A stretch of 64,000 nt of DNA. Origin: Alphaproteobacteria bacterium (lineage in GTDB: Bacteria > Pseudomonadota > Alphaproteobacteria > Rickettsiales > SXRF01). This document shows, one piece after another, positions 2,650 through 54,967 of the stretch. Each line of letters opens with the position of its first letter. Position 1 is the first letter of the stretch. The translations under genes and the position numbers were made by a program. Under the pieces are notes generated by a model, which was given only the letters and a program-made list of their open reading frames with translations, was not told where the DNA came from and searched no databases. The stretch covers positions 96,826-160,825 of the forward strand of contig JBKDKX010000006.1 in NCBI GenBank assembly GCA_046344715.1, in the 5' to 3' direction.

Positions 2650-5007
2650 TTAGTTCCTCAGCGGTTTGCCCGTAGTCAGGATATGCTCAATGCGCGCTAG
2701 TGAATCTTTATGCTTCACCAGCTCCATGAAGGATTCAAACTCAAGGTCAAGAAGTTGCTGCTCGGTCAGCGGCTCGGACATATCGGTATCACCACCGGAA
2801 AGTACCACCGCCAGATGCTTACACACCACCACATCATGCGGTGTTGCTTTGCCTGCTGCCTTGAACCCATCCACCGCCATGTTCATCGCAACCTTGGCAG
2901 ACTTGCCCGGCAGATGCAGCACAGACTGTTCCGGAGTTTTATAATCTTTCGCCATTTCCAAGCAGCGCGCTTTGGCATCAGCCAGCACGCGCACGCGGTT
3001 CATAGTTATACCATCCGTCTCGCGGATGATTTTCATATCACGCGCTTCTTCAGCTGACATGCACACTTTGGCGGTAGCAATCGCTTCAAATACTTTGGTG
3101 ATGGCAGGCATGGCACCACCTGTTGCCATCAAATTGCCGATCATCCCCCCTGAAGAACCTTTGTTTTCCCCAAGCTGGCGAATGAGCATCTCCTTACAGC
3201 CGCCCCACGCCGGGATCAGGCCAACACCCACTTCCACCAACCCTGCATAGGATTCGATATGCGCCTGCACCGCATTGGAATGCAGCACGATCTCGCAACC
3301 ACCCCCAAGCGCACGGCCCGTGAGCGATGCCACCACAGGGAACGGTGCATATTTAAGTGCCATCACCGCGTGCTGGCCAGCACGAATCACTTCGCCAATC
3401 TGTCCCCATGCTGCAATATTTGCTGCCATCAATACGAAGCCGAGGTTCGCACCAACAGAGAAATTATCCGCATCATTGCCAACCACTAAGCCTTTGAAAT
3501 TCTGCTTCACCGTGCCGATGGATTGCTCGATCATCGAAAGAATATCCGGATCCACCGAGTTCATTTTTGATGTGAGTTCTAAACACGCAATGCCATCACC
3601 CAAATCCCACAGTGATGCTGAAGCATTCTTCGCAACCGGCTTGGTGGTGAGCTTAATATCAGAAACCATCAGCGAACCACTCGGCGGGATAATCGCCTCA
3701 TACTGGCCACCAATAGTGAAGGCCTGGCGCCTGCCAGCTTCTGCGCCATACAGTTTTTTGCCGCGTGCTTTTTCGATGATCGCAGGAACGGACTTACCAT
3801 CCGCCTTCAACTGGTCGGCAAACCAATCTACGCCCAGGCGGTCAATCATTTCAAATGGGCCGTACTTCCAGTTATAACCCATCTTCATTGCATCATCGAT
3901 ATCGGCGATATGGTCAGAAATTTCCGGTACCAGTGACGCCGCATAATGCAGCGTGCCAAGCAATACAGAGCGTGCATACTGCCCGCCAATATCCTTATGC
4001 GACATGAGTGCGGCCATGCCGGATTTTGCTGCCTCAATACTCGCGAGCTCCACCTTTTTCGGTTGCGTATAATATTCGCCGGTTTGCAGATTGATGACTT
4101 CTTTTATCTTTTTGTCATCCACCTTGTTCACGCGATAAAAACCACCTTTGCCTTTGCGGCCGGTGTAGCCATCCGCGATCATTTTGGTGACCAGTGCGGG
4201 CTCCTGATACGCCGTATTGAATGCATCGCTCGCCGGAAGCGTTGCTTTCATTTCACGCGCAATCAGCGGCATCAAATCAATACCGATGAGGTCAAACAAC
4301 CCGAACACGCCGGTCTTTGGAATACCAACAGGCTTGCCCATCACCGCATCGGCCTGTTCAACTGTAATGCCGAGGCGAATCGCTTCCGTCAACCCCTGCA
4401 TCAGCCAGTACACGCCAATACGGTTGGCGATAAAGCCCGGCGTATCCTTGCAATGCACCACGCCTTTGCCCAAATGCACATCAGCGAAATTGCAGATAGC
4501 ATCAAAGGCCGGTTTCTCGCACGCACCCTGCACCACTTCTAGCAAGCGCATATAGCGCGGCGGGTTAAAGAAGTGGGTGATCATGAAATGTTTTTTGAAG
4601 CCGTCAGAGAAGCCTTTGGTTAGCTCATGCAGTGGAATGGTGGAGGTGTTGGAAGAAACCACCGCATCAGGCTTACGTACCGACTCGATCTTTTTATACA
4701 CATCATGCTTTACTTCCAGCTTTTCGAGCACCACCTCGATAATCCAGTCGCAGTCGGCCAGCAGCTTCAAATCATCTTCCAGATTGCCACAGGTGATCAG
4801 CTTGGCGCGGTCTTTATGTACAAAACCGGCGGGGCTGGCTTTAAGCTGCTTTTCTACAGCAGATTCAGTGAGTTGGTTACGATTTGCGGCATCTTTAGGC
4901 ACAATATCGAGTAAAACCACCTTGGTGCCCGAATTAGCGACCTGCGCGGCAATGCCACTGCCCATCACACCCGAACCCAAAACACCCACTTTTTTGATAT
5001 TTGCCAT
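2650..5007 (-). CDS. Bifunctional 3-hydroxyacyl-CoA dehydrogenase / enoyl-CoA hydratase (dehydrogenase domain N-terminal)
   Basis: 785 aa. N-terminal Rossmann motif VGVLGSGVMGSGIA, a HACD-type middle region, and a C-terminal crotonase-like ALGGGCEIVLH. An aagga SD lies upstream of the ATG. Confidence 0.85.
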   Translation of the reverse strand: MANIKKVGVLGSGVMGSGIAAQVANSGTKVVLLDIVPKDAANRNQLTESAVEKQLKASPAGFVHKDRAKLITCGNLEDDLKLLADCDWIIEVVLEKLEVKHDVYKKIESVRKPDAVVSSNTSTIPLHELTKGFSDGFKKHFMITHFFNPPRYMRLLEVVQGACEKPAFDAICNFADVHLGKGVVHCKDTPGFIANRIGVYWLMQGLTEAIRLGITVEQADAVMGKPVGIPKTGVFGLFDLIGIDLMPLIAREMKATLPASDAFNTAYQEPALVTKMIADGYTGRKGKGGFYRVNKVDDKKIKEVINLQTGEYYTQPKKVELASIEAAKSGMAALMSHKDIGGQYARSVLLGTLHYAASLVPEISDHIADIDDAMKMGYNWKYGPFEMIDRLGVDWFADQLKADGKSVPAIIEKARGKKLYGAEAGRRQAFTIGGQYEAIIPPSGSLMVSDIKLTTKPVAKNASASLWDLGDGIACLELTSKMNSVDPDILSMIEQSIGTVKQNFKGLVVGNDADNFSVGANLGFVLMAANIAAWGQIGEVIRAGQHAVMALKYAPFPVVASLTGRALGGGCEIVLHSNAVQAHIESYAGLVEVGVGLIPAWGGCKEMLIRQLGENKGSSGGMIGNLMATGGAMPAITKVFEAIATAKVCMSAEEARDMKIIRETDGITMNRVRVLADAKARCLEMAKDYKTPEQSVLHLPGKSAKVAMNMAVDGFKAAGKATPHDVVVCKHLAVVLSGGDTDMSEPLTEQQLLDLEFESFMELVKHKDSLARIEHILTTGKPLRN

Positions 5008-47073: not shown

Positions 47074-47088
47074 GCCGCGTGTCGCGGC
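47074..47088 (-). terminator. Hairpin directly after the P450 stop codon
   Basis: gccgcg-tgt-cgcggc, followed on the minus strand by atttgcattttt. Confidence 0.5.
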
Positions 47089-48486
47089 CTAATTTCTGGC
47101 GCGACTGATGCGAACTATCAACGGATGGCGAAGTTTCAGCGAAATCCCGGGCTTCATGCAGTTACCAACTTTGTTGAGCGCCACTACATCAAACCACGGC
47201 AGTAATTTTGCAACCACGGTACGCGCTTCCATATCTACAAAACTGTGGCCGCTGCATTTGCGCGGCCCCAGCGAAAAGGGGAAATATATACCTGGATCAA
47301 TGGATTTTTCAGCATCACCCAGAAAACGCTCTGGAATGAAGCTGTTCGGCTCGCTCCACCATTTTGGATTGCGGTGCATTGTAATATGTGGCACTGCGAT
47401 AACCGTGCCACGCGGAACCTTTAAATCACCAAACTGGTCATCCTCTATTGCCTGCCTGCCTGCCAGCCAGAAGGGTGGGTATAGACGCATGGTTTCCTTC
47501 AACACCACAGACAGATAGTTCATTTCCTGAAGCATGTCATAGGTCAACGCAGCACTATCTGGCATAGCAAGACATGGGGCACAGCTAATGATATCTTCGC
47601 GCAGTTTTTGTTTAATGGCGGCATGATCATCTAGCGCGTACCATATCCACTGCATCATGATAGAAGTGCTCTCAAAACCAGCAAAAACCATGGTTACTGC
47701 GTGGTCGCGTATATCCTTATCAGCAAAATATTCAGGGTTTTCTTGTTGCGCCTTCATGAGTAGGGCTAGGAAATTTTTAGGATCATGAAGCCCTTGCTTC
47801 TTGTATTTTTCGGTTAATTGCAGTAATTGCGCATCAATGTAACTCAATGCGCGGCGAAAACGAAAATACGATGGTGCACACATATATTTTCGCATGTCAA
47901 TTTTGGGGAAAATCCGTAAATTCCTCAGATATTCTATCAGAACCGAATATGCGCTATGCAGGTCTTGTACCGTTTTGTCGTCAATATCCTTGCCGAAGAT
48001 AGTTTTAAGGATAACTTCGGTTGTTATCTTTGCCATTTCTTCGGTGATATTAATATCTATGCTGCCATGCTCGGTGAGTTTCAGCCACTTGTTCTTATAT
48101 TTTTCGCTTACTTCATTTACGATATCAAAATAATCGTGGCTGATGCGTTCACGGCTGAACATCGGCTGGACTTTCGGGCGATCTCTGCGCCATTTCTCGC
48201 CATTACTTACCAGTATCCCTTGGCCGATTGCTGATTCAAACCGTATGTAGGCATCGCTTTTCCGGTAATTCTTATGATTATCAACTAAAACATGCCTGAC
48301 CAAATCAGGATGGTTAAGCAGCAATGTGCGCTGCCCCATGATTTTAACGGCTATAATATCGCCATCCTGCCTTGAGTGTTCCATCACTGCACCAATGCTG
48401 TCACGAATAATAGGAATCGCAAGCCCTATGAAAGGCAATCCCTTAAGTTCAACTACCTTATAGTCTGTTTTTTGCGCTTCCTGCAT
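47089..48486 (-). CDS. Cytochrome P450 (CYP4/CYP102-like E-class appearance)
   Basis: 465 aa. I-helix FAGFESTS, ExxR ETMRLYPP, heme loop [13 protein letters not shown]. Confidence 0.85.
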
Positions 48487-48565
48487 AATCAGAAATGACT
48501 GTTATATCCAACTAAGTTATATATTATATTACAGGTGTTTATAGCAATATGTTCAGGGTAAGTAA

Positions 48566-50125
48566 ATGAGCCAGTCGAAAGAGTGCATCAGCCGATGGAA
48601 AACACTGCTGCCTGAAGGAAGAGTGTTGCCCGAAGCAAGGCTTACAGATTACCAGCAGAACTGCCTAGGGGTAACTAGGCGTATCGTTACCGCAATTCAG
48701 CCACAAACTGAAGCAGAGATTGTAAGTATTATTAACATTGCCAACCAGTATCAGCTTCCAGTGTACACTATCAGCACAGGTCATAACTGGGGTTATGGTA
48801 CCAGTCTGCCCGCAGCTGATGATTGCGCAATACTGGATCTTTCGCGCATGAACAAAATTCTTGCTATGGATGTCGAATTGGGTCTGATTACACTGGAGCC
48901 TGGCGTAACTCAGCAGCAACTATATGATTATCTCCAACAACATAGACTGAATTACTATGTACCCACCACCGGCGCAGGGCCTTCCGCAAGCATCGTAGGT
49001 AATGCTCTTGAGCGCGGATTTGGCATGGCACCGGAAGAGGATCATTTCCGTGCTGTGACATCTATTCGCGCTGTACTCGCAGATGGCAGCATCTATATAT
49101 CACAACTTGCAGCAATCGGCGCAACGCAGGCAGGCGTATGGAAATGGGGAACAGGCCCTTATCTTGATGGCCTGTTCAGCCAGTCCAATATGGGAATTGT
49201 GACGTCCATGCAGATTTCACTGGCAACAAAACCGGAACATACTGAATTATTTGTATTCACCTTGAAGAAACGTCAGGCGATAGAAGAATTTATTTCACCT
49301 ACGCGGCATTTGTTACGTGATGTACCTGGCAACATTGGCAGCATGAAATTTTTTAACAATACCTACCAAAAATTACTTTCCGGTGCGGATGTCCGTAATG
49401 GGCTACTGCGAGAAGCAGAATGGACAGGTTTTGGGCTATTTAGATCAACACACAGCATGGCCTCTTCTATACGCAAACAAATAGGCCAGCGACTAAAGCC
49501 ATATTGCAGCCGTATTATTTTTACAAACGACAACAGGCTAAAAGTACTCAAACATGCAGCAGGTTTTGTAGGGGGAAGTAAAGGACATTTCATTCGTAGT
49601 CAGATTGAACAGGGGCAATATCTGCTGGATCTGGCAAACGGCATTCCCCGCTCTAATGCCATGCGTATTCTGTATCAACATATTCCATCCCCTCAAGATT
49701 TTAATACTGATCCGATTAAAAATGGCGTGGGTCTTATCTGGTATCCACCAATTATTCCCCTCACGAGCGATCATGTGAGAGAATGCGTAGATATGGTCGG
49801 CACTATCTTATCAAAGTATTATTTTCCTCCGGCCATATTATTCACGTCAGCTAACGAAAAATGTGCGATTGGGGCAATCCCTATAATCTATAAAAAACCG
49901 GAAGAGGCAGAAAATGCCATGCGCTGTTATGATGAGTTAGTAAGTCAGGGAAACCGTATCGGTTGCCCACCTTACAGGCTAAACGTGGAGGCTATGAAAC
50001 ATCTACCATCACAACTAGATTCAGGATACCAGACAGTTGCAAAGTCAATCAAACAAGCTCTTGATCCAAAATATATTCTCTCACCTGGAAGATACGATCA
50101 CGGCCAAAAAACTAATAAATCCTAG
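48566..50125 (+). CDS. FAD-linked oxidase (PCMH/VAO-type FAD-binding domain)
   Basis: 519 aa. ISTGHNWGYGTSLP...ILDLSRMNKILAMDVELGLITLEPGVTQQQL is typical of the VAO/4-cresol-dehydrogenase-type FAD domain. It is divergent from the P450 gene across 79 nt. Confidence 0.65.
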   Translation: MSQSKECISRWKTLLPEGRVLPEARLTDYQQNCLGVTRRIVTAIQPQTEAEIVSIINIANQYQLPVYTISTGHNWGYGTSLPAADDCAILDLSRMNKILAMDVELGLITLEPGVTQQQLYDYLQQHRLNYYVPTTGAGPSASIVGNALERGFGMAPEEDHFRAVTSIRAVLADGSIYISQLAAIGATQAGVWKWGTGPYLDGLFSQSNMGIVTSMQISLATKPEHTELFVFTLKKRQAIEEFISPTRHLLRDVPGNIGSMKFFNNTYQKLLSGADVRNGLLREAEWTGFGLFRSTHSMASSIRKQIGQRLKPYCSRIIFTNDNRLKVLKHAAGFVGGSKGHFIRSQIEQGQYLLDLANGIPRSNAMRILYQHIPSPQDFNTDPIKNGVGLIWYPPIIPLTSDHVRECVDMVGTILSKYYFPPAILFTSANEKCAIGAIPIIYKKPEEAENAMRCYDELVSQGNRIGCPPYRLNVEAMKHLPSQLDSGYQTVAKSIKQALDPKYILSPGRYDHGQKTNKS

Positions 50126-52173
50126 AAATTTGCGGTGAGCGTGACATAAAAGCTTCTTCCTATCTCGGTTGGAGAGATATATGTGAATGGTATAAATTCT
50201 TGATGCCGGTCATCAAACAGATTCTGTCCAACAAGGCTTACTTCCATACCATCCTGTATTAGATAAGAAATGCGCGTATCAAAGCGCTGATAGCCATTGA
50301 TATTGGCACGCCCCTTCAGATCATCATTCAGATATAACATATTGGTCATTTCCAGCCCATCTCCAAAAGAATAGGTAGAGAAAATATTGAACATATGCTT
50401 AGGCTGCTTGCCTATGACGGAATAAAAATCTGTCTCGTCTTTCTGATCAATCGTCAGCCCAAGATAACTGTATGCACCAGCTAGCTGCCAATCGTTGGAA
50501 ACATTCCATTTCCCTGACACTTCCAGACCATAAGAATGCCCTGTCTTGCTGTTTGCCGTGGTAAGCGGCCATAAGAGGTATGTGCCCATGTTTACAGGAT
50601 CGCCAAACCGGCCATTGAACAACTTGTCATAGTCATTATAGAAAACCGCAACATCCACAGAAGATGTTTTGGTAGGCTGAATACGATATCCCATTTCGTA
50701 CGCGGTCAGCTCTTCTGAATCAACTGCATCCAGACCTCTGGCAGCAACCAGCGTTGGAATGCCTGCGAAGAAAGGAGCACTGCCAGGAGGTAAAATTGCA
50801 AGACTTAGATGGCCATCATCCGTAAAACGGCTGGGCGTATGCACCGCGCGTGATACCGATGCCCAGACCGTCTGGTCTTCATCCGGCAGCCATGAAATGC
50901 GCGCGCTTGGCTGAATTTCCACGCCTGTGTAATCATTATGCTCAAACTTGGATCCAAGCGTCAGAAACACTTCTTTCTCATAGAGCGGCATTTTATCCTG
51001 CACGAACGCATTAAATAAATTGTCGCTGCGGCGCTGTGGTGTGAGTGCGTATTGCTCAGATGCCGGCGAATTCTCACTGCGTATCAGGCGATATCCCGTA
51101 CCCCACACCACCTCATGATTTTCCCAGCGTGTCCATACGTGCTGGAAGTCTATGTCCAGCGTGCCGGTAGTATCATTAAAGAAAGCGGTTTTTCTGGCGG
51201 CATTATCCACATACATCTGGAGCGATGCCTGTGAATCCTCGGCAAATTCCTCTTCCCACCGCCCCAGCAGGTTAAATCCATTCGCCCTAACACCCTCAGA
51301 CTGCCTTGCATAGCCCGCAGCACCCAATTCAGGAAATGTAAATCCCGTGTTTGCGTCCATGTAGTAAATATCACCTTGCACGGTCAGGCTGCGTGAATCC
51401 GTAATCTGTGAATCACTACGGAATCCTGCCTGACTGCGTTTCCAGGAATCTCCGGCATTCGCGCCTGTCACCGTTTGTTCGGAATCATAGGCACTCTGCT
51501 TGGCATACATGCGTACATAGCCTTTTTCACCCATCTGTGTACCATAACGCCCACCCACAATACCATCCACCTGCGTACCGAAAGCCGCCGTTGCTAGGCC
51601 ACCTTCCGTATCTTCCGTATGTTTAGTGATGATGTTAATTACACCATTTACTGCATTAGCTCCCCACAGCGTTGCCCCTGGGCCACGAATAACCTCGATG
51701 CGATCAATATCTTCAAGCATCGTATCCTGCATGTCCCAGATCACGCCAGAAAACAGCGGTGAATAAACGGTGCGGCCATCAATCAGCACCAGCAGCTTGT
51801 TGGAGAACTGGTCGTTAAACCCGCGCGATGTCACTGTCCAACCGTGAGATCCAGATTTAGTCACCGTAATACCCGGCACCATGCGCAGCACTTCCGGAAT
51901 CACAGTAGCACCTGAACGCTTGATATCATCTTGCGTGATTACAAAAATGGCCGCCGCCGCCTCGGTTTCTTTTTCTGCTCGCTTGGATACAGAGGTTACC
52001 TCAAGCTCGGTAAGCTCCTTGAGTGACATATTTAGGAGATCTTTTGTGGTATATTTTGCTTTCGCGGCATGGGAAACCGCAGGAATGCCTGCAACTAGCA
52101 CGGATGCGACCATGCCAACAAATGCCTTGGATATATCTGAGTACCGCTGGCTATTCTTATTTAATAGCGACAT
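50122..52173 (-). CDS. TonB-dependent outer-membrane receptor
   Basis: 683 aa. Signal peptide, plug motifs LVLIDGRTVYSPLFSG and IEVIRGPGATLWGANAVNGVINIITK, a beta-barrel, and a terminal ..TLTANF. Confidence 0.85.
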   Translation of the reverse strand: MSLLNKNSQRYSDISKAFVGMVASVLVAGIPAVSHAAKAKYTTKDLLNMSLKELTELEVTSVSKRAEKETEAAAAIFVITQDDIKRSGATVIPEVLRMVPGITVTKSGSHGWTVTSRGFNDQFSNKLLVLIDGRTVYSPLFSGVIWDMQDTMLEDIDRIEVIRGPGATLWGANAVNGVINIITKHTEDTEGGLATAAFGTQVDGIVGGRYGTQMGEKGYVRMYAKQSAYDSEQTVTGANAGDSWKRSQAGFRSDSQITDSRSLTVQGDIYYMDANTGFTFPELGAAGYARQSEGVRANGFNLLGRWEEEFAEDSQASLQMYVDNAARKTAFFNDTTGTLDIDFQHVWTRWENHEVVWGTGYRLIRSENSPASEQYALTPQRRSDNLFNAFVQDKMPLYEKEVFLTLGSKFEHNDYTGVEIQPSARISWLPDEDQTVWASVSRAVHTPSRFTDDGHLSLAILPPGSAPFFAGIPTLVAARGLDAVDSEELTAYEMGYRIQPTKTSSVDVAVFYNDYDKLFNGRFGDPVNMGTYLLWPLTTANSKTGHSYGLEVSGKWNVSNDWQLAGAYSYLGLTIDQKDETDFYSVIGKQPKHMFNIFSTYSFGDGLEMTNMLYLNDDLKGRANINGYQRFDTRISYLIQDGMEVSLVGQNLFDDRHQEFIPFTYISPTEIGRSFYVTLTANF

Positions 52174-52257
52174 ACTTCTCCCAACGCCATTAGATGTTTC
52201 ACCTAATGCATTAGAAGAATTTGTTTAATAATGAATTAATACAACGATTAAAACGTT

Positions 52258-53040
52258 TTATGCACGTTCAACAAGGTAAAGCCCTGAATTTTCCTGCTGC
52301 GCAGGCATAAATACCTTCCTTGGCTCGTAGAATCCTTTGACATCAACAGGTTCCCTGTCGTGCGATACCTCTAGTAAATGACTGAGCTGTGATTCTGTGA
52401 TATACCACTTAATATCCGGATGTATCGGGTTTTCCGGCACTTGTACATCCATGCGTATCTTGGTGGTTTTTACACCAAATCCATTTGCCACCAAACGCCA
52501 GTTTCGCGCAAGCGGCAGTGTTGATTTTGCAAAGAGGAAATGTATCTTTGCGTTAATCACCTTCTCGTACATGATGCTACAGAGATTGTAGAAAATATTA
52601 TCATCGCTTCCGCTGTCTTCCATTACAGCAAAACGGGATATCTCACCATGTCTGAAAAGCTTTAACGGATATTCTGGAAATTTATCACGCAGATGGAAAT
52701 CTTTGCCCTCCATCGGTAAATCCCAATTTTCTTCTGGGTCACGGATAGTAAGCCTGCATCCACCAAGACAGAGCTTACCACGCCTTGCAATCAATATATG
52801 ACTCACCTTATCGTATATATCTTCTTCACCACTGAAAAGATCGGTATTGAACATCTTGCGATACATCGCCTCACGCAACACAAAATACTGGTGCAGCAGG
52901 GCGCGATCATCGGTGAATTCGTACACTATCGGTTCATTACCGCCATATGCGTTCGCCAGACGATTGACCATGGTTGCCTGAACGGTTTCAAGGAACGTGT
53001 TGGGTTTTGAGTTATCGCTATGTATGGTAGGCTTGGTCAC
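52258..53040 (-). CDS. LuxI / N-acyl-amino-acid-synthase-like acyltransferase (GNAT-fold autoinducer-synthase superfamily), tentative
   Basis: 260 aa. LREAMYRKMF...EEDIYDKVSHILIARRGKLCLGGCRLTI...HGEISRFAV matches the R..vF / E.D.YD / G..RL / E.SRFav signature I recall for LuxI and NAS enzymes. Confidence 0.45.
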   Translation of the reverse strand: MTKPTIHSDNSKPNTFLETVQATMVNRLANAYGGNEPIVYEFTDDRALLHQYFVLREAMYRKMFNTDLFSGEEDIYDKVSHILIARRGKLCLGGCRLTIRDPEENWDLPMEGKDFHLRDKFPEYPLKLFRHGEISRFAVMEDSGSDDNIFYNLCSIMYEKVINAKIHFLFAKSTLPLARNWRLVANGFGVKTTKIRMDVQVPENPIHPDIKWYITESQLSHLLEVSHDREPVDVKGFYEPRKVFMPAQQENSGLYLVERA

Positions 53041-53122
53041 GGCAGTTAATCCTCTTTATTGAAATTAACCATTTATTAGCAATTTATCCACAGGTCAATA
53101 GGAATTTTTTGCCTATATATCG

Positions 53123-53454
53123 CTATTCTATCACCTCCAGCCTGTGCATGTCTTCTCCAACTTGCTTGATATTATCGAATTTTGACAAATTGTGACTTTC
53201 CGGCAACTCATCATAGGTAAGGGGCTGCCTGTGGATATAGCGTGGCTTATCCACAAATGCGCTCAACTGCTCACGCGGGAGTGCCCATAAAACGGGGTTT
53301 TTTCACGTTTCAGGTATAGTTTCTGTATCCGCTTGCTCACCGCCGTGCCCTGATGCTGAACCGGTAGAGCCGTAAAAATCATCTGCGATTCTAAAACGTC
53401 AATCTCAATACATGTCAGATGAGGGAAGTCATCCACACACTGCGTTATATTATC
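53123..53454 (-). pseudogene. Possible frameshifted gene remnant
   Basis: Two open stretches in adjacent minus-strand frames. 53454-53263 reads ..VDDFPHLTCIEIDVLESQMIFTALPVQHQGTAVSKRIQKLYLKREKTPFYG.. and 53302-53123 reads ..ALPREQLSAFVDKPRYIHRQPLTYDELPESHNLSKFDNIKQVGEDMHRLEVIE*. They overlap at an A6C4 run (about 53303-53294). I do not recognise the family. Confidence 0.3.
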
Positions 53455-53624
53455 TTACGATGTACGCTGCCGCACCTATGCAACAATCGCCCCCTGCAAT
53501 ACAAACCATGCTGTAACGTTAGGTTTGTAGATACGATCCGTTCTGTGCACAACAACGCCAAACTATTGTTGTATATCGGCAGTTATTCACCAAATCACGC
53601 AGATAAATCAACCAGCTCTTGCAA

Positions 53625-54152
53625 TTATTTGGTTTCCACGAGTGTTTTCAAGTTAGCAAGCCCCTTCTCAAACTGTTCACCCACCATTTTTTCACAGTCA
53701 AAAATCAGGCTTGCCAATTTGCCCATGAAGTTGTTTTTGCCGTACATACTCCACGTCACCTCTGTCTGGCCGCTAACATCCTTGAAAGAAAATTCAGCAG
53801 TGCTCTGCCCTGCCATAGGTTCTTTAAAATCCATATCGAAACGAATACGATCGGGACGGCTTTCGGCAATCGTCATACTGCCAACACCTACATCCATGTT
53901 GCCCGCCCAGCTCATTTTTGCGCCGACACCTGCATCGGGCCCTTCAAAATTACTGGTGGCGTTAGGATCGAGCTTTTCCCATGGTGACCATGCTTTCCAG
54001 TTTTGCAGATTATTCACCTGTGCAAATATTTCGCTGGCCGGAGCATTCATAGTAGCAGAACGACTTACCTTAAATTCATCTGGCTGCTGGGATGCAACCA
54101 TAGCAACCGCCGCAATAATAAAAACTACACCGAGCAGAAGTTTCTTAAGCAT
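53625..54152 (-). CDS. SRPBCC (START/polyketide-cyclase-like) family protein with a signal peptide
   Basis: 175 aa. MLKKLLLGVVFIIAAVAMVAS, then ..APASEIFAQVNNLQNWKAWSPW...VTWSM.G.N.FMGK, typical of SRPBCC proteins. The 279-aa plus-strand ORF opposite it is a shadow. Confidence 0.6.
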   Translation of the reverse strand: MLKKLLLGVVFIIAAVAMVASQQPDEFKVSRSATMNAPASEIFAQVNNLQNWKAWSPWEKLDPNATSNFEGPDAGVGAKMSWAGNMDVGVGSMTIAESRPDRIRFDMDFKEPMAGQSTAEFSFKDVSGQTEVTWSMYGKNNFMGKLASLIFDCEKMVGEQFEKGLANLKTLVETK

Positions 54153-54890: not shown

Positions 54891-54967
54891 TGGTGGGTCC
54901 GGGAGGATTTGAACCTCCTACCCCCGCCTTATCAGAGCGGTGCTCTAACCAAATGAGCTACGAACCC
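54891..54967 (-). tRNA. tRNA-Ile (anticodon GAU), CCA encoded
   Basis: Reverse complement: GGGTTCG TA GCTC ATTTGGTTA GAGC A CCGCT CTGATAA GGCGG GGGTA GGAGG TTCAAAT CCTCC CGGACCC ACCA. The cloverleaf folds by hand: 7-bp acceptor stem, 4-bp D stem, 5-bp anticodon stem, 5-bp T stem. Confidence 0.9.

Follow-up and report, generated by a model that had tools for sequence, protein, structure and literature searches.

We analyzed a 64-kb stretch of DNA, here called the window, from an alphaproteobacterial genome labelled Rickettsiales (contig JBKDKX010000006.1, positions 96,826 to 160,825). Four genes form a compact cluster in the window, encoding a putative N-acyl amino acid synthase (NAS), a TonB-dependent receptor (TBDR), a FAD-linked oxidase and a cytochrome P450, and we found that the synthase and the receptor recur together in other genomes. 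The related NAS loci used for comparison come from uncultured alphaproteobacteria, in part from metagenome-assembled genomes (MAGs), and loci are numbered from L001 onward. The cluster and its upstream flank contain the following features:

47089-48486, minus strand: cytochrome P450 of 465 aa with no fused reductase (Pfam p450, E 4e-76), a variable tailoring enzyme
48487-48565, intergenic: 79 nt between the divergent P450 and oxidase genes, with blocks kept in L001 and L002
48566-50125, plus strand: FAD-linked oxidase/dehydrogenase of 519 aa (FAD_binding_4), placed in the 4-phenol-oxidising VAO/PCMH subgroup
50122-52173, minus strand: TBDR of 683 aa (Plug, E 8e-22)
52258-53040, minus strand: NAS, a FeeM-type acyltransferase-like protein with a predicted GNAT fold, 260 aa, GTG start, the core gene of the cluster
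53129-53553, minus strand: remnant of an LCM-type methyltransferase pseudogene, detected by tblastn with sister-locus methyltransferases
53230-53255, no strand: palindrome TGTGGATA-N10-TATCCACA, a candidate operator about 190 nt 5' of the NAS start
53625-54152, minus strand: SRPBCC/Polyketide_cyc2 protein of 175 aa (PF10604, E 3e-12) with a hydrophobic N-terminal signal or anchor

The four genes had been singled out in an earlier note made from the letters of the DNA, and the list of open reading frames gives identical coordinates for them. Its description of the layout is accurate: 84 nt lie between the gene for the 260-aa protein and the co-directional receptor gene, 79 nt separate the divergent P450 and oxidase genes, and the stop codons of the oxidase (TAG, 50123-50125) and of the receptor (50122-50124, opposite strand) overlap. 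The motifs that it quoted are present in the translations, and the p450, FAD_binding_4 and Plug domains were confirmed by Pfam. The start of the NAS gene is backed by a good Shine-Dalgarno sequence upstream (AAAGAGGA), and the resulting N-terminus agrees with that of the homologs.

We characterized the family to which the 260-aa protein belongs. A total of 96 clear homologs were found, nearly all of them metagenomic and unannotated. The family is a rare one, since an exhaustive profile search (E <= 1e-3) of 1.84 billion proteins uncovered just 569 cluster representatives. Residues E41, D74, D77, K78, R86-G88, R96, E111, H131 and S135 are invariant in the family alignment, and the LuxI/NAS-type motifs RLRE..Y, E.D..DK, ARRG.L..G.RL and EISRF are invariant or almost so. 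The conserved core in an alignment of 47 homologs reads YEFT.D..LLHQYY.LRE.MY; EED..DK.SHILIARRG.LC.GG.RLT.RE.DE; LPME; and HGEISRFA. An AlphaFold2 model built from the family alignment (pLDDT 82.5, pTM 0.73) has the GNAT-derived fold common to FeeM and LuxI-type synthases. When the model was compared with the PDB using Foldseek, the top matches were LasI (E 1.3e-7), FeeM (2g0b, E 1.1e-6) and BjaI (E 4e-6), with target TM-scores of about 0.6; MesI was also among the best matches, and generic GNATs came after these.

Family models were also applied to the relatives. The Pfam FeeM model (PF21926) is matched by 19 of the 47 close relatives and by 49 of the 73 in the wider set (best E 5.8e-9, mostly below the gathering score), and Acetyltransf_5, the OlsB family, by 36 of the 73 diverse members; the homolog in L022 matches an OlsB model (E 9e-4). 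Autoind_synth is matched by merely two of the 73 (best E 1.5e-4) and does not match the window protein. The LuxI/NAS signature proposed earlier thus holds at the level of the LuxI/FeeM-fold superfamily but not for LuxI proper. Judged by the modelled fold and these matches, the 260-aa protein appears to be a remote, unclassified branch of the FeeM/NAS superfamily, distinct from LuxI-type N-acyl-homoserine lactone (AHL) synthases. Its family, fold and neighbours predict the N-acylation of an amino acid, with acyl-acyl carrier protein (acyl-ACP) or acyl-CoA as the donor.

We then compared the neighbourhood of the NAS gene across genomes. A scan of one genome per species gave 23 loci from MAGs labelled Rickettsiales, Alphaproteobacteria or Pseudomonadota. 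A metagenome scan gave 23 further loci, two of which were duplicates, and homologs of each window gene and of each recurrent neighbour were mapped. The NAS gene was found to adjoin a receptor of the same family in 30 of 44 loci, and in 15 of the 20 that have at least 4 kb on both flanks. Because gene order, orientation and flanking genes differ among the loci with this pair, and because NAS identity falls to 33-45 %, the pairing is more than inherited synteny. A look-up seeded with the receptor on a 2-Mb Rickettsiales contig (L024) again found the order methyltransferase-NAS-P450-TBDR. The earlier note had asked whether the four genes co-occur elsewhere. All four are present as orthologs in L001, L002 and L003, and also in L011, there with a different P450; since this set of genes is seen again in other genomes, chance does not explain the arrangement. 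The four genes are not a fixed unit, however: the NAS-receptor pair is the conserved core, and the P450 and the oxidase are interchangeable tailoring genes. The following genes accompany the NAS gene at these loci:

LCM-type S-adenosylmethionine (SAM) methyltransferase: 14 loci, beside NAS and mostly just upstream of it
P450 of the cluster: 12 loci, tailoring gene
FAD oxidase: 7 loci, tailoring gene
FA_desaturase-type enzymes: 6 loci, tailoring genes
ThiF-nitroreductase fusion: L012 and L032, next to NAS
CMAS cyclopropane synthase: L040, tailoring gene
PhyH dioxygenase: L035, tailoring gene
Haem_oxygenas_2 protein: L022, tailoring gene
second NAS copy: L044, tandem paralog
prephenate dehydratase: L009, 36 nt 3' of NAS

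A NAS-TBDR core with exchangeable neighbours is the pattern of a small biosynthetic cluster. The FA_desaturase, CMAS, PhyH, Haem_oxygenas_2 and LCM methyltransferase genes, which would tailor lipids or amino acids, occupy equivalent positions in the sister loci and speak for a lipoamino-acid product. The SRPBCC protein adjoins the cluster in L001, L002 and L029 and follows the P450 gene in L004; it may be a carrier for a hydrophobic ligand. In L044, a metagenomic contig, the tandem NAS paralogs (500-1153 and 1334-1942) are 50-51 % identical to the window protein and are followed by methyltransferase, TBDR, DUF4154 and histidine kinase genes. A FadB-like 3-hydroxyacyl-CoA dehydrogenase/enoyl-CoA hydratase (about 780 aa) and a large TPR protein adjoin the receptor in L006, L007, L013, L017 and L024. 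This FadB-like neighbour probably reflects lineage synteny, because it occurs together with the same TPR gene. The FadB-like gene of the window lies 45 kb from the cluster (2650-5007, minus strand).

The degraded region next to the NAS gene, seen in the earlier note, was found to contain a decayed gene that could be identified more closely as an LCM-type methyltransferase pseudogene. In tblastn searches with the intact methyltransferases (about 300 aa) of the sister loci, amino acids 6-38 align to 53553-53464 and amino acids 209-297 to 53391-53129, in differing frames, and the central 170 or so codons, which carry the SAM-binding motif, are gone. The intact sister protein matches both Pfam LCM and TIGR00027. 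The closest relatives of the window locus, L001 and L002, have lost the methyltransferase wholly, and the more distant L029 keeps the order SRPBCC-methyltransferase-NAS. The oxidase and the methyltransferase were never found in the same locus (Fisher's p 0.03, uncorrected for phylogeny), and the oxidase, the ThiF-nitroreductase fusion and the methyltransferase occur as alternatives among loci. From the mutual exclusion of oxidase and methyltransferase, the lineage has evidently exchanged one tailoring step for another. The N-acyl alanine methyl esters of Roseovarius were considered as a product type for the ancestral pair of methyltransferase and NAS, and were kept as a lead only; the source paper names no biosynthetic genes.

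The oxidase carries a Pfam FAD_binding_4 domain (PF01565, E 5.5e-25). Its nearest structures are of the vanillyl-alcohol dehydrogenase/oxidase type (9fge/9ffk, E about 1e-57) and PchF (1dii, E 2.3e-53), followed by eugenol oxidase (EUGO, E about 1e-40) and VAO (about 1e-32). By closest similarity, it is placed in the 4-phenol-oxidising VAO/PCMH subgroup, the mechanism of which has been described (PMC7617285). The earlier description as a VAO-family enzyme was therefore right, but not the generic oxidation of alcohols or amines, since the protein falls in the 4-phenol-oxidising subgroup and has the phenolate triad. In the HMMER alignment, Y470-R471 align directly with Y473-R474 of PCMH. The tyrosine of the GYG motif, Y77, is also present, and we take it to be the first tyrosine of the triad, by correspondence with Tyr108 of VAO and Tyr95 of PCMH. 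The residues of the phenolate-binding Tyr/Tyr/Arg triad are invariant in the 7 oxidase orthologs. A phenolic substrate is likely, because the enzyme belongs to the 4-phenol subgroup and retains the triad. In an NAS cluster, the obvious candidate is N-acyl-tyrosine, in which the benzylic carbon to be oxidised would likely be C-beta.

A second clue to the head group comes from two sister loci. In L012 and L032, a 654-aa ThiF-nitroreductase fusion adjoining the NAS gene matches the NCBIfam 'Rv1355c family' (TrzS). Rv1355c is TrzS, and OxzB has the same architecture; OxzB and TrzS convert N-acyl-Tyr, -Phe or -Trp to oxazolones by ATP-dependent cyclisation and flavin-dependent desaturation between C-alpha and C-beta (bioRxiv 10.1101/2020.06.11.147165; PMC10404671; PMC12856293). 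Together, the phenol-type oxidase and the OxzB/TrzS-like enzyme of the two sister loci point to an N-acyl-tyrosine-type product. The prephenate dehydratase gene close behind NAS in L009 is a further hint of an aromatic head group. The PCMH-type oxidase of the window looks like a functional analogue of the TyzC/OxzB oxidase.

The P450 was found to have orthologs with 48-86 % identity in 11 other NAS loci. Its nearest structures are CYP3A4/3A7 (E 2.5e-42 for CYP3A4), then CYP170A1, CYP97 and CYP4B1, with P450 BM3 at about 1e-20. The label 'CYP4/CYP102-looking' given in the earlier note is thus correct for the broad class but not for the closest relatives: CYP3A4/3A7 are nearest, CYP4B1 comes later and BM3 far lower. 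An assignment as a fatty acyl hydroxylase is not supported by the nearest structures.

We next analyzed the receptor and the genes linked to its family. On the NCBIfam model NF053590 ('TOL_0244 family', cutoff 645), the receptor reaches 623.7 bits, with an alignment that covers positions 1-603 of 604. The TOL_0244 protein of Thalassolituus rises sevenfold on the n-C28 alkane (PMC6304351). After its own family, the curated models that fit best are those of siderophore and B12 receptors, and these matches fall mainly in the N-terminal plug. There is no STN domain, the Plug domain begins at residue 70, straight after the signal peptide, and no sigma/anti-sigma genes were seen nearby, so that the receptor does not resemble a FecA-type transducer. 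No riboswitch, for B12 or otherwise, was found upstream of the receptor gene at E <= 1, and no terminator-like site was found between NAS and receptor in the scan. The receptor gene, 84 nt downstream on the same strand, is probably co-transcribed with NAS.

In the sister loci, the receptor is linked to a putative relay. Receptor, DUF4154 (YfiR-like) and histidine kinase genes follow each other in L012, L014, L016, L022, L035 and L044; all three are also present in L018, with the DUF4154 and kinase genes on the far side of NAS. Receptor-seeded look-ups found the same trio without NAS in L025-L027, and the kinases of L025 and L027 carry recorded CHASE8 and HAMP domains. CHASE8 is the periplasmic domain of YfiN, which is repressed by YfiR, and the outer-membrane protein YfiB relieves this repression (PMC8085984). 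By analogy, the TBDR would take the place of YfiB in an envelope relay. The YfiR-like and kinase neighbours of the receptor family suggest that the compound is sensed, and because of this link in the sister loci, sensing is favoured over plain recovery. The coordinates of this recurrent module are 6791-12542 in L025, 5888-12696 in L026 and 7986-16881 in L027. A MarR gene follows it in L025 and L026, a divergent FA_desaturase gene lies directly upstream of it in the same two loci, where L026 also has a stand-alone ThiF gene, and L027 has three receptor copies.

The DNA upstream of the NAS gene was searched for regulatory sites. The palindrome TGTGGATA-N10-TATCCACA consists of two DnaA-box-like half sites and is unique in the window, where none is expected. 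It was also found 5' of NAS in L001 (989-1013), L002 (9785-9809), L028 (116-142) and L029 (1953-1978), in the last case within the intact methyltransferase gene, at its 3' end. Another half site is present at 53084-53092, and the window has 8 copies of the half site TGTGGATAA, where 0.71 would be expected. This palindrome is a candidate operator. A role as a replication origin was rejected, since the cumulative GC skew does not turn there. The intergenic region 48487-48565 has blocks in common with L001 and L002 (three sequences compared by eye). Promoter and terminator scans did not rise above shuffled expectation and gave weak hints only. A perfect 6-bp GC hairpin (GCCGCG-TGT-CGCGGC, 47074-47088) with the look of a bidirectional terminator lies between the P450 stop and the icd start region.

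The cluster had been described as richer in AT than its flanks. The G+C content is mildly low, at 0.45 for the P450, 0.449 for the oxidase, 0.485 for the receptor and 0.444 for the gene of the 260-aa protein, but the window mean is 0.483 (standard deviation 0.029) and the genes on the far side, at 53.6-56.1 kb, are equally low (0.46). UbiD, GGDEF and membrane-protein neighbours are common to the window locus, L002 and L005. As this neighbourhood is constant in genomes whose NAS is merely 62-64 % identical, the cluster is no recent island. Recent horizontal acquisition was rejected, the G+C deviation being within about 1.3 standard deviations and the neighbours being kept in L002 and L005. The only RNA gene found in the window is a tRNA-Ile(GAT) at 54891-54967 (minus strand), 1.9 kb past the cluster, between PaiB-like and GGDEF genes. 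No integrase was seen, and the synteny with L002 and L005 speaks against an island. The statement that no LuxR-type regulator, nonribosomal peptide synthetase (NRPS) or polyketide synthase (PKS) is present is borne out among the genes examined at 42-58 kb.

Taken together, the results suggest that the cluster makes a tailored N-acyl aromatic amino acid that is recognised by the probably co-transcribed TBDR, a reading to which we give a probability of about 0.5. The idea put forward in the earlier note, that the genes produce an N-acyl compound, oxidise it and then recover or sense it, stays the best reading, and the NAS-receptor pair is conserved across chromosomal contexts. We infer a route of the following kind. 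The FeeM-type synthase would take a fatty acyl chain from acyl-CoA or acyl-ACP and attach it to the alpha-amino group of its acceptor, which is most likely tyrosine or a different aromatic amino acid. The PCMH/VAO-type flavoenzyme would then bind the phenolate and abstract a hydride from C-beta of tyrosine, the benzylic position. The p-quinone methide so formed could rearrange to the alpha,beta-dehydro form (an enamide) or, by hydration, give the beta-hydroxy form; this two-electron oxidation is also carried out on N-acyl-tyrosine by the nitroreductase-type enzymes TyzC and OxzB. The P450 may oxidise the product further, on the acyl chain or on the ring. In the ancestor, the LCM-type methyltransferase would have methylated the product, a step that has been lost here, leaving the pseudogene. 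The released compound, or a complex of it, would be recognised at the cell surface by the TBDR. In the sister loci, the receptor probably feeds a YfiBNR-like relay, and the compound would be a self-made signal. In the window the relay is not adjacent, and uptake or recovery alone is equally possible.

Several observations weigh against this reading. The search with hidden Markov models (HMMs) that the earlier note had proposed gave FeeM and Acetyltransf_5 matches among the relatives, but the 260-aa protein itself has no Pfam match at E <= 0.1. Its match to TIGR03694, the NAS of exosortase systems, is far below threshold (E 6e-4, 19.3 bits against a cutoff of 111.95), and no exosortase/PEP-CTERM gene was recognised near NAS in the mapped loci. 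Profiles of the NAS family searched against PDB sequences found no FeeM/LuxI structure below E 0.01 (BjaI reached E 0.02, chance level), so the link to solved structures is visible by fold comparison alone. The OxzA-like acyltransferases are remote relatives of the family (hhalign probability 56-78 %). Dehydrogenases of the VAO/PCMH group bind FAD covalently through an 8-alpha-O-tyrosyl link and oxidases through an 8-alpha-N3-histidyl link; in the window oxidase, the FAD-linking Tyr384 of PCMH is replaced by Asp382. No alignment with characterised enzymes was obtained for its cap domain (residues about 250-368), and the substrate could be another phenol. The genes that hint at the head group are minority features (oxidase, 7 loci; ThiF-nitroreductase fusion, 2 loci), and the amino acid is deduced from neighbours alone. 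The alkane induction in Thalassolituus provides the sole experimental data on a member of the receptor family (PMC6304351). The cluster itself lacks an exporter, an acyl carrier protein, an acyl-CoA ligase and a P450 redox partner. A search of the 64-kb window gave no homolog of the DUF4154 protein or of the histidine kinase, so that a YfiBNR-like relay is absent from it, and all NAS loci come from uncultured genomes.

The proposed route could be part of LuxR-independent cell-to-cell signalling, in which tailored N-acyl aromatic amino acids act through a lineage-specific TBDR, a YfiR-like protein and a CHASE8 histidine kinase. This full chain is a speculative extension and, on the present evidence, rather unlikely.

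A different reading is that the genes serve to import and degrade a hydrophobic or phenolic compound from outside the cell, such as an alkane, an alkylphenol or a host lipid, which the P450 hydroxylates, the flavoenzyme oxidises and the GNAT-fold protein conjugates or detoxifies. The closeness of the receptor to the TOL_0244 model, the namesake of which responds to alkane (PMC6304351), would fit this, as would the catabolic role of the phenol enzymes PCMH, VAO and eugenol oxidase (PMC7617285) and the FadB-like beta-oxidation gene next to the receptor in the five loci named above. We consider it improbable, however, because what is conserved is a synthase with a receptor, while clusters can do without the P450 and the oxidase and have a methyltransferase, desaturase, cyclopropane synthase or oxazolone synthetase in their place, all of them biosynthetic tailoring enzymes. 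No aldehyde dehydrogenase, ring-cleavage genes or PchC cytochrome subunit were found nearby, and the FadB-like gene travels with the same TPR gene, as noted.

The product could instead be a lipophilic metallophore, an N-acyl aromatic amino acid oxidised to a chelator (for example a catechol or an enamide) that is bound to metal and recovered through the receptor. Siderophore loci classically have a biosynthetic gene in one transcript with a TonB-dependent receptor gene, siderophore and B12 receptors are the next-best models of the receptor, mainly over its plug region, and a P450 acting on a phenol could yield a catechol. Against these points, the three intergenic regions have no Fur-box-like site (at least 13 of 19 matches), the genes next to the cluster include no ABC importer, periplasmic binding protein, reductase or exporter, several sister clusters have a methyltransferase only or lack any oxidase, and the receptor family is linked to the YfiR-like/histidine kinase relay rather than to transport genes. 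The chance that the cluster makes a metallophore is therefore small.

Membrane aminolipid synthesis was also considered. Here the NAS would be an OlsB-like N-acyltransferase, its lyso-aminolipid product would be hydroxylated, desaturated or methylated for envelope remodelling, and the receptor would be a bystander or unrelated. The matches to the OlsB/hemolysin family (Acetyltransf_5 in 36 of 73 members; an OlsB model in L022) are in line with this, and desaturase- and hydroxylase-type enzymes and methyltransferases, as used in ornithine-lipid modification, are among the neighbours. No OlsA/PlsC-type O-acyltransferase is linked to NAS, though, the phenol-specific oxidase and the oxazolone-synthetase homolog fit neither ornithine nor glycine lipids, and the tight, order-independent linkage to one receptor family would be left unexplained, so that we see only a slim chance for an aminolipid pathway. 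Least probable is a LuxI-type 'solo' making an AHL from SAM and acyl-ACP or acyl-CoA: LasI is the best structural match, with BjaI and MesI among the top, and the motifs parallel LuxI, but Autoind_synth matches 2 of 73 members against 49 for FeeM, no LuxR was seen at 42-58 kb, nor was one recognised among the recurrent neighbours of the sister loci, and the expected substrates of the neighbouring enzymes are a carboxylate or an amino acid that bears a phenol.

Bacteria widely produce N-acyl amino acids, oxazolones and similar lipoamino acids, yet the oxazolone literature explicitly states that their physiological role is not known (PMC12856293). A synthase that is tied to an outer-membrane receptor, and in sister genomes to a sensor pair as well, provides a concrete hypothesis for how such lipids are perceived or recovered, and the pairing may be a new bacterial way of sensing or recovering a lipid-like signal. 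If the tailored N-acyl amino acid is indeed the ligand, it would give a ligand class to a TBDR family so far loosely linked to alkanes, and PCMH/VAO-type 4-phenol oxidases, known from catabolism, would gain a biosynthetic role. The exchangeable tailoring genes, including a methyltransferase in the course of being lost, are a natural experiment in small-molecule diversification. Should the signalling scheme hold, it would amount to an energy-coupled equivalent of AHL quorum sensing at the outer membrane, in which swaps of tailoring genes diversify the signal. The carriers are uncultured alphaproteobacteria labelled Rickettsiales, the chemistry of which is essentially unexplored.

The cluster can be compared with several known systems. 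FeeM-type NAS share the fold (2g0b is among the best PDB matches) and the motif layout, and Pfam FeeM is the commonest family match. The classical products of these synthases are long-chain N-acyl tyrosines, which are then oxidised by flavoenzymes (FeeG; PMC11959600). Unlike them, the window protein lies below the Pfam/NCBIfam thresholds, its cluster has no recognised ACP, acyl-ACP synthetase, FeeG-type decarboxylase or exosortase, and its partner is a TonB-dependent receptor.

The oxazolone-type pathways OxzAB of Pseudoalteromonas rubra and TyzACB/TrzAS of Mycobacterium tuberculosis likewise combine a LuxI/FeeM-fold acyltransferase, as the source of N-acyl-Tyr, -Phe or -Trp, with flavin-dependent desaturation between C-alpha and C-beta, and a similar role as stress or signal molecules has been suggested. 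L012 and L032 pair NAS with an OxzB/TrzS-type ThiF-nitroreductase fusion. The window itself does not belong to this pathway: ThiF/nitroreductase genes are confined to the sister loci L012/L039 and L032, and in place of a ThiF cyclase and a nitroreductase oxidase the window has a PCMH/VAO-type flavoenzyme and a P450. The papers on these pathways mention no receptor. In canonical oxzAB-type loci (Nitrosococcus wardiae and two other genomes), the fusion was found beside FeeM/Acetyltransf_5 acyltransferases. Orthology of the NAS family to OxzA was rejected on account of the remote relation given above; rather than being OxzA itself, the present family is a sister family that was recruited for chemistry of this kind. 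The oxazolone synthetase of the oxzAB-type loci is adjoined by PEP-CTERM-domain proteins (L052, 8774-9580; L053, 7507-8463) or an RND transporter (L051, 7106-10192), and the PEP-CTERM neighbours of L052 and L053 echo the published link between NAS and exosortases.

With the VAO/PCMH 4-phenol enzymes (PchF, VAO, eugenol oxidase, VAD), the window oxidase shares FAD_binding_4 and the retained Tyr/Tyr/Arg triad. It differs from them in its divergent cap, in the Asp at the position of PCMH Tyr384, in lacking a cytochrome subunit gene, and in a context that is biosynthetic rather than one of lignin or cresol catabolism. The receptor resembles TOL_0244 of Thalassolituus oleivorans and OmpS of Alcanivorax dieselolei, for which the detection or import of very hydrophobic molecules has been proposed (PMC6304351). 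Its score is just under the cutoff of the TOL_0244 model, no NAS gene has been reported with these receptors, and their ligands are deduced solely from expression or mutant data. In the sister loci, the succession of receptor, DUF4154 protein and inner-membrane kinase parallels YfiB, YfiR and the CHASE8-bearing YfiN of the YfiBNR (TpbB) system of Pseudomonas aeruginosa (PMC8085984). The outer-membrane partner is, however, a TBDR instead of an OmpA/Pal-like lipoprotein, the output is a histidine kinase instead of a diguanylate cyclase, and in the window the module is not adjacent.

In the literature, we found no description of NAS with a TonB receptor, of DUF4154 with TonB, or of YfiR with a TonB receptor and a histidine kinase, in agreement with the earlier remark that no described system is known to have this gene combination. 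NAS-based lipoamino-acid clusters and 4-phenol oxidases are kinds already known. What is new is the conserved coupling of NAS to a dedicated TBDR, often together with a YfiR-like/histidine kinase module (with CHASE8 in two loci), the PCMH/VAO-type enzyme and the cluster P450 as putative tailoring steps, and the rare NAS family itself.

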